Source: a virus
Taxonomy: Duplodnaviria > Heunggongvirae > Uroviricota > Caudoviricetes
Strand: one strand, 5' to 3'
Length of the DNA: 64,000 nucleotides
Virus record (IMG/VR): IMGVR_UViG_3300001199_000001
Location: 197,404-261,403 of that record
Of the stretch, positions 7,348 through 25,062 are shown piece after piece; the stretch's first letter is position 1; each line of letters opens with the position of its first letter. The notes under the pieces are model-generated. The model did no database searches and was not told the origin of the DNA. It saw nothing but the letters and a program-made list of their open reading frames with translations. The position numbers and the translations under genes were made by a program.

Positions 7348-7425
7348 TGGCGCCCGTGACAGGAGTCGAACCTGCAAACCTTTCTGGTGTATGCCCAGAC
7401 TGCTCCGCCGTTGAGCTACACAGGC
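7348..7425 (-). tRNA. tRNA-like RNA with non-canonical anticodon loop (undetermined isotype)
   Basis: GCCTGTG/CACGGGC-G-CCA, GCTC/GAGC D stem, GCAGG-TTCGACT-CCTGT T arm; loop GCATACA lacks U33; promoter TTGACA-N17-TATATT upstream. Confidence 0.78.
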
Positions 7426-7923: not shown

Positions 7924-8397
7924 TTAAATGAACATCTTGATCTGGTCGTAATACGGCTTGTTCGCCGCAAGCCGCTCGCCCTTCAGGTGCAGGGGGCCGA
8001 TACCGACGGCGGTCAAGGTCTCGCCGTCGAACACCGTCAGACCTCGGTCGACAACGCGGGTTATGCCGCCTTCGTTGACGTAGTCTTCATAGAGCATGTT
8101 GACGACCGTCTCAGGCGCGATCAGGGTAATCTTACCAGCCCCGCCCTTGGTGATGTCACGGTAAGCTTTCGCCGTCTTCGGGAAACGCTTCTCAGCGTCC
8201 CAGTAAGCATGCAGGAAGGCGTGTCCTGATTGGGCATGCATCTTGCCTCTGTTGCCCTTGGCGGCCTTCACAGCCGCTTCAGAGAAGATGCAGTACATTT
8301 TATAGTCAAGGACCCCTTTCGGGGGTGGCTCCTTGCCGGTCAGCTTATGCCAAATGTAGAGGATGATCGAAAGTATCCACCGTCCGGTCTCTTCCAT
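7924..8397 (-). CDS. Peptidyl-tRNA hydrolase Pth2 family
   Basis: RGKMHAQSGHA, KITL, VVDRGLTVF, TLTAVGIGP motifs. Confidence 0.88.
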   Translation of the reverse strand: MEETGRWILSIILYIWHKLTGKEPPPKGVLDYKMYCIFSEAAVKAAKGNRGKMHAQSGHAFLHAYWDAEKRFPKTAKAYRDITKGGAGKITLIAPETVVNMLYEDYVNEGGITRVVDRGLTVFDGETLTAVGIGPLHLKGERLAANKPYYDQIKMFI

Positions 8398-22455: not shown

Positions 22456-22523
22456 CCGTGTTCCTCCAGTTGATGGGCGGAGAATAGCCCAGCGCGTCAG
22501 CCATGTCAACAGCTAATAATTGG

Positions 22524-22919
22524 TTAGAAGATATTAGCCGTTTTCAGGATGCCGTAGGCCACGGCGATACCCCGAATCTCATTGACTACGATCAGCAGGA
22601 TAACGACGGCTTTGGCGTGCCGGGCGAGAAACCCATAGATCGGCGCGCTGAGCCGATGGCTGCGAAACAGCCCGTCGAGCATCCCCAGTTGTCGGGCGAA
22701 CGGCTTACACAGCAGCTTCAGCGCGCCGACGATCAGCCCGTCGATAAACCTTATCGGAGCCAGGAGTACGCTAGCTAAGCTGGTGACGTAAGCGTGTACA
22801 CGGAAGCGCCTAGACGGATCGTAGGCGGCATTCTCAGAGCGAATGGGGCTCGGCTGCCCGGAACGCGTGGCGCGCTCCTGAGGGCCTTCTAGCGGGTGGC
22901 TTGATGGGGTCGGGTTTAT
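22524..22919 (-). CDS. Putative membrane protein with probable ATA start
   Basis: 132-codon frame after AAGGAG and a near-consensus promoter; in-frame TAA just upstream of RBS; hydrophobic C-terminus. Confidence 0.5.
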   Translation of the reverse strand: MNPTPSSHPLEGPQERATRSGQPSPIRSENAAYDPSRRFRVHAYVTSLASVLLAPIRFIDGLIVGALKLLCKPFARQLGMLDGLFRSHRLSAPIYGFLARHAKAVVILLIVVNEIRGIAVAYGILKTANIF

Positions 22920-22942
22920 AGCAGTATTCTCCTTGGTGATTT

Positions 22943-22970
22943 ATTATAAACCACGTTAGGAGAATGTCAA
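22943..22970 (-). promoter_or_regulatory. Near-consensus sigma70 promoter
   Basis: TTGACA-N16-TATAAT. Confidence 0.85.
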
Positions 22971-23199
22971 CACCATGAATATGGGTCCGGCGAGAGATCA
23001 GCCGTTACCGGTGTGCATGGGAGGGACCTAGGATTCAACACTCAATCCGGTTGCCTAGACGGGACCACCCAAGGCTTTATCCCGCTTTCTCGGCTTATCT
23101 CCCGGCCTAGGAACCCGGTACATCCGCCTGTCTTGTTGCCCATTTGGGCGAATTCGATGTGATGACGCTGCTATAGCCGTGCGCACAGCCTTGCATCAA

Positions 23200-23272
23200 G
23201 TCAGTCGAAGAGGATTCGAACCTCTGGCCTCATCCTCTACGGACGCGCTCTCCCACTGAGCTACCAACCGAC
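23200..23272 (-). ncRNA. Embedded tRNA-like domain without CCA and with 5-nt anticodon loop
   Basis: GTCGGTTGG-TA-GCTC AGTGGGA GAGC-G-CGTCC GTAGA GGATG-AGGCC-AGAGG TTCGAAT CCTCT-TCGACTGAC. Confidence 0.75.
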
Positions 23273-23326
23273 ACGTCATCACACTTTTCGGCCGGACTTT
23301 GCTAGCTCTATCGGGCCTACCTATGC

Positions 23327-23399
23327 GGGACTGCTCTACCCTCTGAGCTACGGTGCAACCTCTCGGCGGCCCGGTGGGGCTCGAACCCACGTCTTTCCC
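23327..23399 (-). ncRNA. Circularly permuted tRNA-like (YrlA-like) module
   Basis: GGGA-AAGAC-GTGGG TTCGAGC CCCAC-CGGGCCG-CC GAGA GG-TTGCACCG-TA-GCTC AGAGGGTA GAGC-AG-TCCC: T arm precedes D arm, acceptor capped by GAGA loop. Confidence 0.75.
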
Positions 23400-23704
23400 T
23401 ACTCGTTGCCCGTTCGGGCGAAACTTTGGGACGATCTACCGGTCCGGCTAGAAACCCCCACGTGTGAGGTAACCAATACCTTCGCGGCGGCGAGGCTAAC
23501 GTCCCTCGAAGCCTTCTACTCGCTTTCCCCGATCTTTCCCGTCCCTTGAAAAGCGCTTTTCGCAGGACGTTCTCACACCGGTTATTCGCCTACACCGTTT
23601 TTGATTCGGTTCGACTTGCCAGCGACCTTTTCAGTGAAGCTGACCAGAAACTTGAACTTACGCCAACGGACCGCCACCCAACCGGACGAATTGCACGTCA
23701 TCGC

Positions 23705-23785
23705 GGCCATGATGCTTCTACCTTTAGACCACCTCCCGGTGCCCGGTTGGTGGGCGGGGATCGAACCCGCTTTACAACGATGGCC
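23705..23785 (-). ncRNA. Circularly permuted tRNA-like (YrlA-like) module
   Basis: GGCCAT...GCGGG TTCGATC CCCGC CCACCA ACCGGGCACCG GGAGG TGGTCTAAAGGTAGAAG...ATGGCC. Confidence 0.65.
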
Positions 23786-24108
23786 CATCTTTGCTGGGCT
23801 GTACTATTCCAAGGCCTTTGGAACGCCTGTAGACGATCCGCTGGCGTAAGTTCAAACTACTTTCCAGAAGGCTCGCGGATGCTCATCCCGCGAATCAACG
23901 CCTTTCGGACTCCCCGCGCTCATAGGGTGTGTACACCACCCTACTCCCGACGGATCGGAGTGTCCGCACTGCGGTATCCACCCACGTCGCCCTAGTCGGC
24001 CGCTCTCTCGTTAACCCCGGCAGAGGTTGTAAGCGTTTGAGCTAGCCTTCTGGAAAACAGTTTTGACTGTCAAAGATCGAGGAGCCCGTTGCCGTTCTCC
24101 ATGGTCTT

Positions 24109-24137
24109 AAGATAGCAAAGGTTGGAGAGGATGTCAA
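24109..24137 (-). promoter_or_regulatory. Sigma70-type promoter of the large ncRNA
   Basis: TTGACA-N17-TATCTT, followed by boxA-like GATCTTTGACAG at 24067-24078. Confidence 0.8.
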
Positions 24138-24161
24138 CAGCTTATTACAACATGTTTTACA

Positions 24162-24268
24162 CCTTAGGAAAGACCGGAGGAGCCGCATTGCTTAGCCAGC
24201 GTCTGCGGCGATCCCGTCACGAGGAGTCTCAGAAGCGTGACCTTCCTACCCTCCGGCCTGTCCTAAGG
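24162..24268 (-). ncRNA. Putative ~107-nt structured small RNA
   Basis: Closing helix CCTTAGGA/TCCTAAGG and CCGGAGG/CCTCCGG, internal GTCACG/CGTGAC and GCCGCA/TGCGGC; TTGACG..TAGCTT upstream; no ORF. Confidence 0.6.
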
Positions 24269-24395
24269 CGGATACAGAAGCTACTCGGCTAATGTCAGCC
24301 GTCAACCATTTATTTTACCGAGCGGCGTTCCGGCGGGGAGCTTATCCGTCAACTCGGCGATGTCTTCGATAGCCTGCGCTCGCTTGATTATCGGT

Positions 24396-24605
24396 TTACT
24401 GAGCGTGGTTGTCATTGGCGCCGTAGCTCCTTTCGATGTAGGCCGTGATACGCGCCTGTTCAGTCTCGGTCCCCTTGATCTGACCAAGCTCCAGACGTAG
24501 TAAGCGCCCACGTGAGGACTCGGTGGGGTCAACGATATTGGCAGAAGCTTCGGCTTGGGTATGACCCCTCCGCAGCCGAGCCAGATGTAGCGGGTTCTGA
24601 TTCAC
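24396..24605 (-). CDS. XRE-type HTH-like protein
   Basis: LHLARLRRGHTQAEAS...RLELG; GTG after AGGAG. Confidence 0.55.
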   Translation of the reverse strand: MNQNPLHLARLRRGHTQAEASANIVDPTESSRGRLLRLELGQIKGTETEQARITAYIERSYGANDNHAQ

Positions 24606-24621: not shown

Positions 24622-25062
24622 TCATTCGCCGAACTTCTTCTGGAGGCGAAGGTACTCGGCATATTCCGGGTCTTCCTCCCGCTCGACTTGCTCAGCGAAG
24701 GTTCCCCAATCCGGCGGCAAAGTCCGGGTCATTCCGTAGCGGTAGTAGTTCACCTGATCTTCGAGTTTGCTGGCGCCGCCGTCGTCCATACGCCCGCCGT
24801 AACCGGCGTCTTCTCGGACCTTGCGCGCCTCGGCGAGAACAGCGGCGATGACCTTTTCGATATCCATAGGTTTAGGCTTCTCCACTTTATCGCCGGGGCG
24901 TGACACCAGTGTAAGTTCGCTTTCGGCGACGTGAAATCCGTTGCCGCCAGCAAAGATGACAAAAACCTGGGGGTCTTCGAGCGGATATTGTTTCACATCG
25001 CGGACAACGCCTTCGCCAAACCCTAGGCAGCGCACGATGTCGCAGGCACGGAACTTAGCCAC
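24622..25062 (-). CDS. Hypothetical protein
   Basis: Tiled ORF; C-terminal DPEYAEYLRLQKKFG. Confidence 0.7.
   Translation of the reverse strand: MAKFRACDIVRCLGFGEGVVRDVKQYPLEDPQVFVIFAGGNGFHVAESELTLVSRPGDKVEKPKPMDIEKVIAAVLAEARKVREDAGYGGRMDDGGASKLEDQVNYYRYGMTRTLPPDWGTFAEQVEREEDPEYAEYLRLQKKFGE

Follow-up and report, generated by a model that had tools for sequence, protein, structure and literature searches.

We analyzed a 64,000-nt window (G000:C1:197404-261403) of a 278,859-bp virus record (G000) and describe here a gene-free stretch on its minus strand, at approximately 24301-22683, which contains a consensus promoter and several tRNA-shaped units alongside domains closed by long helices. 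Coordinates are window positions unless a G000 coordinate is given. The evidence supports a stretch that is non-coding, promoter-driven, and composed in part of tRNA-derived modules that are unlikely to decode.

Minus-strand genes with clear codon bias stop at 24622 and restart at 22682 or 22509. Between 22683 and 24395, codon-bias scoring found no open reading frame (ORF) of at least 40 amino acids (aa) that resembled the phage's genes: scores ran from -0.40 to +0.14, vs +0.27 to +0.44 for the flanking genes, and a 68-aa ORF at 23788-23582 had the weakly positive value of 0.14. Among ORFs of at least 20 aa, an upstream motif resembling a Shine-Dalgarno (SD) sequence was found only at a 37-aa frame (24415-24302) and three weak ones. 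Because that 37-aa frame is the only one with a good SD and no other ORF is gene-like, we place the gene-free stretch directly below it, which gives a length of 1.6 kb. Pfam and PHROGs searches returned no match for the two plus-strand ORFs inside the gap (149 and 91 aa), the 68-, 64-, and 43-aa minus-strand ORFs lying outside that search. The first-pass annotation had claimed 1.1 kb with no credible ORF; the codon-bias scores bear this out, and the non-coding span is longer than it proposed. In the gene map, the gap is the fourth largest, behind a 2764-nt gap at 66390-69153 of the record, one tRNA block, and the record ends.

The sigma70 promoter that had been read at 24137-24109 on the minus strand (P1) is confirmed, and it is a member of a 71-copy phage family. 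The pattern TTGAC[AT]-N16-18-TAnnnT occurs 71 times genome-wide, compared with about 7 in 20 block shuffles. The copies are mostly intergenic (65 of 71), 45 of them lie at most 60 nt upstream of a same-strand start, and TG precedes 47. P1 carries the extended family consensus, ..GCTG TTGACA. The same family also fronts tRNA blocks (77474 and 81273 of the record) and a lone tRNA-like gene (window 7469). Downstream genes are served by a second promoter, P2, and by a further strong promoter at 22509. No intrinsic terminator was predicted between the modules described below, nor before P2 at 22970.

Clamped domains and tRNA-like modules

The features of the stretch are listed in Table 1. Folds were scored by comparing the minimum free energy (MFE) of each segment with that of shuffled sequences (e.g. 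200 shuffles) and are reported as z-scores. Three domains are closed by long helices, which we call clamps. D0, which the first-pass annotation overlooked, has an MFE of -60.4 kcal/mol (z -5.1, equaled by 0 of 200 shuffles), and its minus strand is 10.5 kcal/mol more stable than its plus strand. D1 folds with a z of -3.4 (-4.0 in an extended form), and its clamp includes a 2-nt internal mismatch and two G-U pairs. D2 (MFE -97.4 kcal/mol, z -6.2) encloses two small hairpins, a T-arm at 23770-23754, a closed acceptor-like hairpin at 23753-23729, a D-like hairpin at 23728-23717, and a further hairpin. The clamps of D1 and D2 abut, with 7 nt in common. Inverted repeats of this kind are rare in the phage: only one other with at least 18 matches and a spacer of more than 100 nt was found genome-wide, a repeat block at 268.5-269.1 kb excepted.

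Table 1. Positions of the features in and around the gene-free stretch, with related genes elsewhere
Feature	Position	Strand	Description
D0	24270-24160	-	19-bp clamp (18 pairs including one G-U), three-way junction; inverted repeat I3; upstream of P1
P1 promoter, TTGACA-N17-TATCTT	24137-24109	-	TG before -10; upstream GCTG of phage promoter family
D1	24068-23849	-	Multi-branched; 25-bp closing helix 24068-24044/23873-23849; inverted repeat I1; no tRNA parts
D2	23855-23652	-	22-bp closing helix with two G-U pairs, 23855-23834/23673-23652; inverted repeat I2
D3 (GTGTGAG/CTCACAC domain)	23650-23462	-	Sequence present; structure unsupported
Hairpin motif copy 1, TTCGCCC-GAAC-GGGCAACGAG	23422-23402	-	Direct repeat D4
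M3	23416-23305	-	Predicted circularly permuted tRNA-like module; MFE = centroid, ensemble frequency 0.21
Domain D4	23284-23158	-	11-13-bp stalk TGTGATGACG/CGTCATCACA, cloverleaf 23270-23200, side hairpin; MFE fold, z -2.2
Hairpin motif copy 2, TTCGCCC-AAAT-GGGCAACAAG	23152-23132	-	Direct repeat D4
3' domain (AGAT-AAGCCG/CGGCTG-ATCT)	23131-22985	-	Sequence present; structure unsupported
P2 promoter, TTGACA-N16-TATAAT	22943-22970	-	12 of 12 consensus matches; ~260-nt leader, then 52-aa ORF 22682-22524
tRNA-biology and ribosomal-protein genes (RlaP, Thg1-like, PTH2, RtcB, L11, L1)	497-2139, 7924-8397; G000:C1:167663-168943, 171195-172306	- (window positions)	
C33 tRNA-Ile(GAT) in relatives	L095:4417-4492, L096:3966-4041, L097:4021-4096		

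In D0, D1, D2, and D4, the minus-strand fold is more stable than the plus-strand fold by 10-16 kcal/mol. The three long clamps have eight non-Watson-Crick positions; read on the minus strand, five of these are G-U, and A-C does not occur. This strand asymmetry and G-U bias, together with T-arms that all lie on the same strand, point to RNA helices and not DNA palindromes.

The first-pass annotation had divided the transcript into five domains by five pairs of helix sequences. All five pairs sit where it placed them, and the first two extend to 25 and 22 bp. As folded domains, D1, D2, and the TGTGATGACG domain (D4) stand (z -3.4, -6.2, and -2.2), while the GTGTGAG/CTCACAC domain and the 3' domain do not (z -0.5 and -0.24). 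The sole significant similarity in a check for internal duplication was a 21-nt hairpin repeat (z 4.2), which has just two copies in the 279-kb genome. A further ARAGORN call, made in intron mode, was a tRNA-Tyr spanning D1 and D2 with an intron of 111 nt; its arms are poor, and we judged it spurious for that reason.

Three perfect T-arms are present at 23770, 23390, and 23225, all on the minus strand. A genome-wide scan found 42 such arms, 35 in the tRNA array and seven outside it; three of those seven are here, and just two are stray. The first-pass annotation had three domains displaying T-loop plus D-loop pairs; next to the T-arms, this strand of the stretch has two canonical D-arms and, as a third, a weak D-like hairpin.

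One of the tRNA shapes is the cloverleaf of D4 at 23201-23270, which scores 46.2 bits against the Rfam tRNA model (RF00005; cut-off 29) and is also called by ARAGORN. A working decoder would have a 7-nt anticodon loop with U33, a 3' CCA and, for a Leu anticodon, class II form. The D4 cloverleaf lacks CCA, has the loop CGUAGAG with G33 (a 5-nt loop in the Rfam alignment), and forms three of its acceptor-stem pairs as G-U; it is a 71-nt class I structure with the anticodon UAG (Leu), compared with 85 nt for the array's own tRNA-Leu(UAG). The statement that no module is a usable tRNA must thus be qualified: this one passes the Rfam tRNA cut-off, and its G33, missing CCA, and acceptor G-U pairs agree with the statement.

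M3 is predicted to be a circularly permuted tRNA that is opened at the anticodon loop and closed at the acceptor end. Its order begins with a bulged closing stem, a 5-nt equivalent of the variable loop, a T-arm (23390-23374), and an acceptor-like hairpin capped by GAGA (23373-23351). It continues with a UA linker, a canonical D-arm (23348-23333), an A, and a strand that pairs back upstream of the T-arm.

Unusual tRNA genes also occur in the phage's array. CCA is encoded in 39 of 43 tRNA genes called by ARAGORN, and U33 is absent in five of the 43. A tRNA-Gln(CUG)-like gene (G000:C1:89224-89325, plus strand) has C33 and no CCA, and pairing between its leader and trailer extends the acceptor helix to 22 perfect pairs; the tRNA-Gln(CUG) of relatives has U33 and CCA. 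This gene is much like D4, an analogue within the same genome that is likewise stalked. A tRNA-Ile(GAT) with C33 (loop CCGAUAA, G000:C1:88950-89024) adjoins a normal U33 copy. Because the C33 form is kept in all three phiCbK-like relatives examined, odd anticodon loops are maintained in the lineage.

Known RNA families and the search for relatives

A covariance search of 22500-24500 against Rfam 15 at E ≤ 10 gave no match to GOLLD, ROOL, transfer-messenger RNA (tmRNA), RNase P RNA, or group I/II introns. Its matches were tRNA, a sub-threshold YrlA, and TP73-AS1 and Metazoa_SRP at E 7.7-9.6, which we read as noise. The region as a whole thus falls into no Rfam family, a point that the first-pass annotation had left to be checked.

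The nearest likeness is to YrlA (RF02553), which M3 matches at 23308-23413 with 26.2 bits (E = 0.0076); the curated cut-off is 69 bits. The predicted M3 fold (23305-23416) has the YrlA order of T-arm, closed acceptor stem, and D-arm, ending on the anticodon side in a longer stem, and its predicted size of about 110 nt is within the YrlA range. D2 may have this arrangement too, but less clearly: its D-like hairpin is small, and a competing helix, I6, is present. The modules here differ from YrlA RNAs in being part of a multi-module array with 19-25-bp clamps. A YrlA RNA would be expected to have a Ro60/Rsr (TROVE) gene no more than about 4 kb away on its own strand. Near its 5' end it would carry GNCGAAN0-1G, the likely Ro60 contact (Chen et al. 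2014, PMC4201824). No TROVE/Ro60 domain (PF05731) was found at E ≤ 1 across the 279-kb record, in a search whose controls responded. GNCGAAN0-1G is absent from the modules: the 5' part of M3 has GCCCGAACG, one base too long, the second hairpin copy reads CCCAAAUG, and the 5' strand of D2 lacks the motif. With 26 bits vs 69, no Ro60 gene, and no Ro60-binding motif, we rejected YrlA membership.

For the conserved 3' core of GOLLD (RF02032), neither the search of 22500-24500 at E ≤ 10 nor a whole-genome search gave a match in the region. A true GOLLD elsewhere in the phage (G000:C1:158303-158770, minus strand; L101:404-871) scored 163.6 bits against a cut-off of 150 and thus provides a positive control. 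Its variable linker embeds a CCA-less tRNA-Ser(UGA)-like unit at 158631-158705. Among the three phiCbK-like relatives, one has GOLLD (G001:102856-103342, 171 bits) and the other two gave no match. The phage also carries a permuted tmRNA (G000:C1:159969-160352, plus strand; L101:2070-2453), which scores 64.4 bits against RF04321 and 34 bits against alpha_tmRNA. GOLLD and the tmRNA are 62 kb from the gene-free stretch. In the relative G001, ARAGORN also reports a permuted tmRNA at the corresponding position, and in our phage a tRNA-Met (160995-161071) follows the tmRNA. These RNAs show that large RNAs into which tRNA-like units are embedded are in use in the phage lineage; this does not make the stretch one of them. 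The stretch resembles GOLLD as a large phage non-coding region of similar size that holds a CCA-less tRNA-like unit; it differs in having no sequence or structure match at E ≤ 10, no definable conserved core, and no known relatives.

Phage tRNA arrays offer another comparison. It has been proposed that changes in phage tRNA anticodon loops are an escape from anticodon nucleases (van den Berg et al. 2023, PMC10264068). The arrays treated there resemble the present locus in their tRNA-derived genes, altered anticodon loops, and phages with tRNA repair enzymes. They differ in that the tRNAs described there work, whereas here the acceptor is closed or CCA-less and the loop defective, making decoding unlikely.

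Four further readings were dropped. A tmRNA was called neither by Rfam nor by ARAGORN -m in the region, a retron would be at odds with neighboring genes that include no reverse transcriptase or other Pfam match, an origin with the absence of iterons, and a miniature inverted-repeat transposable element with terminal repeats of D1 and D2 that are unlike each other.

RNase III processing stems are known from rRNA operons and from the early region of phage T7, and their substrates span about two helical turns. The clamps resemble them as helices of about two turns that bracket the units of a multi-unit transcript. The difference is that the putative processing helices here clamp small structured RNAs, not rRNAs or mRNAs.

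The search for relatives of the element covered several collections. A blastn search with 22500-24400 against 50,697 phage records gave no match, and short-query blastn with D2 and the cloverleaf found only T-arm or generic tRNA similarity, at E 0.02 or worse. One match, in a Streptomyces phage, was set aside as a small acceptor-plus-T-arm element, unrelated beyond the T-arm. Flanking proteins have relatives in IMG/VR at 29-48% identity only, none of which carry the element, and one metagenome scan gave two loci at 42-52% identity, with the element absent. In three phiCbK-like genomes, searching by DNA sequence and by T-loop pattern turned up no such cluster elsewhere. Two exact 20-21-nt stretches occurred at five and zero loci in IMG/VR, in the form of tRNA ends, att-like fragments, and one anticodon-less tRNA-like unit. 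On an IMG/VR contig from another phage's array (L105:1400-1570, minus strand), an unannotated tRNA-like unit lies between tRNA-Tyr and tRNA-His and has an acceptor stem, D-arm, and T-arm, with no anticodon arm.

Genome and lineage of the phage

The region is present in one public run, a groundwater metagenome that is probably its source and is kept as contigs, with no variants; no RNA run containing it was listed. The phage's portal protein shares 58-59% identity with the portal proteins of phiCbK-like giant siphophages of Caulobacter (54-59% for the nearest relative), and no closer portal relative was found in the phage collection or IMG/VR. The record contains a block of 39 tRNA genes at 76-90 kb. 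Pfam annotation took in 120 of 257 predicted proteins of at least 90 aa, with most of the first 146 kb outside the scan. Within this scope, the phage encodes RtcB, an RlaP nucleotidyltransferase, a Thg1-like protein, PTH2, YqeY, and ribosomal proteins L1 and L11, with the RlaP and Thg1-like genes side by side. It also encodes GcrA, a PrkA/DUF444/SpoVR trio, Sir2, and NAD-salvage enzymes.

Two other non-coding features were observed. The lone tRNA-like gene at window 7348-7425 (minus strand) has its own family promoter (7469-7441), an encoded CCA, and the anticodon loop GCAUACA, which combines C33 with a pyrimidine at 37; ARAGORN calls it tRNA-Tyr(AUA), and a direct repeat of about 39 nt lies just upstream of it. 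At G000:C1:268567-269135, within a 1.35-kb gene-free gap near the terminase gene, repeats of about 30 nt occur in both orientations and form many near-perfect inverted pairs. Its role could be that of an origin, packaging site, or regulatory array.

Proposed processing and mimicry, and rival readings

Based on the modules and their arrangement, we favor a row of separately folding units from which several small, stable RNAs would be cut, including tRNA mimics that would bind tRNA-recognizing proteins without decoding. We give this reading a probability of roughly 45%. The 19-25-bp clamps would be processing sites for a double-strand RNase of the RNase III type, and the tRNA-like junctions would be sites for RNase P or RNase Z, such that several small RNAs are released. 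These RNAs may act by mimicry, with nucleases that target tRNA, repair enzymes, or other factors that bind the tRNA elbow being decoyed or bound by them. We infer mimicry because the acceptor ends are closed or CCA-less and the loops are abnormal. It is made plausible by the 39 arrayed tRNA genes, RtcB, RlaP, the Thg1-like protein, PTH2, GOLLD, and the tmRNA.

Several results weigh against this proposal. Three of seven segments fold at the level of shuffled sequence: D3 (58 of 200 shuffles were as good, and its helix is outside the MFE fold), the 3' domain, which is at chance level, and the P2 leader (z -0.14). In the D2 core, I6 is an alternative pairing of 11-15 bp that competes with the fold described. 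M3 itself folds weakly (z -1.8), as does the bare D4 cloverleaf (z -0.4), and the M3 T-arm can also be part of a rival, poorer cloverleaf in standard order (23446-23365), which ARAGORN calls only at a lowered threshold. The YrlA model gives 20-24 bits (maximum 23.9) on ordinary tandem-tRNA junctions of the same genome, and mimicry of the model by tandem tRNAs is a pitfall of which the YrlA authors themselves warn (Chen et al. 2014, PMC4201824). The proposed decoy role is drawn from shape and gene context only. In a named phiCbK-like phage, the corresponding position is taken up by closely tiled genes. No homologue was found in the phage records, IMG/VR, the metagenome, or the phiCbK-like genomes searched, and the helices have no covariation support because of this.

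The best surviving alternative, which we still consider unlikely, is a decaying second tRNA cluster, a lineage-specific remnant of pseudo-tRNAs and fragments with no present function. The absence of the element from the relatives examined would suit such a remnant, and so would its degenerate parts (an orphan D-arm, the G33 cloverleaf with its three acceptor G-U pairs, and the weak second hairpin copy) and its several unstructured segments. Decay does not sit well with a retained consensus promoter, however, or with an M3 acceptor hairpin neatly closed by a GNRA loop. The 22- and 25-bp clamps and the whole of D0 and D1 are not tRNA remnants, and 1.6 kb of junk would be unusual in an otherwise closely tiled genome.

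More doubtful is a single large ornate RNA of at least about 1.1 kb that works as a whole in the manner of GOLLD and ROOL, presenting tRNA-like elbows on a scaffold. The modules are probably co-transcribed, given that no terminator is predicted between them; the domains abut, down to the 7 nt shared by the D1 and D2 clamps; and the phage's true GOLLD, with its embedded CCA-less tRNA, shows that such RNAs are in its repertoire. However, all well-supported helices are local, no GOLLD, ROOL, or other large-RNA family matched at E ≤ 10, and no homologue was found that could show long-range covariation. Because D0 lies upstream of P1, we interpret the modules as local units and not as parts of one P1 transcript. 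The first-pass annotation had offered two options, a giant ornate RNA (about 1.1 kb) and a polycistronic precursor cut by RNase III-like processing. The giant RNA does not survive well, with two of its five domains at shuffle level, its transcript boundary broken by D0, and no homologue found; the precursor, cut at long helices, fits better. We thus favor the cluster of separate RNAs over one giant RNA because D0 is upstream of P1 and two of the proposed domains are at chance level.

Equally doubtful is a long structured leader that acts in cis on the downstream operon, setting mRNA ends, stability, or read-through. Cis elements with tRNA-like shapes or long helices exist, such as the t-elements of plant mitochondria and, in the early region of T7, RNase III sites. 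P2 has a 260-nt leader of its own, and no terminator is predicted ahead of P2 and the genes downstream. Yet those genes can rely on two strong promoters of their own, P2 and the promoter at 22509, and 1.1 kb with three tRNA-like units is far above the need of any known cis element. Small protein genes, or an element that works at the DNA level (for instance an origin or a recombination site), are very improbable: the 68-aa ORF scores 0.14 and long inverted repeats can be DNA sites, but no ORF reaches the scores of real genes, the Pfam and PHROGs searches of the two plus-strand ORFs were blank, iterons and an AT-rich tract are absent, and the strand asymmetry of folding, G-U bias, and same-strand T-arms point to RNA.

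Returning to the cluster of processed RNAs, we also put forward a bolder and more specific version, which we regard as a speculation with the odds against it. The locus might be a string of clamped mimics, combining permuted modules in the style of Y RNAs but with no Ro60 and a stalked cloverleaf incapable of decoding, that is transcribed from one promoter, released by a double-strand RNase, and used to titrate or misdirect the host's tRNA-targeting defense nucleases or readers of the tRNA elbow. If true, this would be an RNA-only counter-defense locus of a kind not yet described.

The stretch is a single orphan sequence from a metagenome, and its value is as a lead. The locus is unusual in stringing several tRNA-shaped units together with clamped domains that are not tRNA-like. 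Current thinking treats phage tRNA genes as weapons in a fight for the host tRNA pool, and tRNA-shaped RNAs that do not decode would add a second, RNA-only layer to it. Here, one promoter-driven unit brings together plain clamped domains, a cloverleaf on a stalk, and a permuted module whose acceptor end is closed. If these modules are expressed and bind defined partners, they would provide a compact system for studying the roles of tRNA mimics and long RNA clamps in infection.

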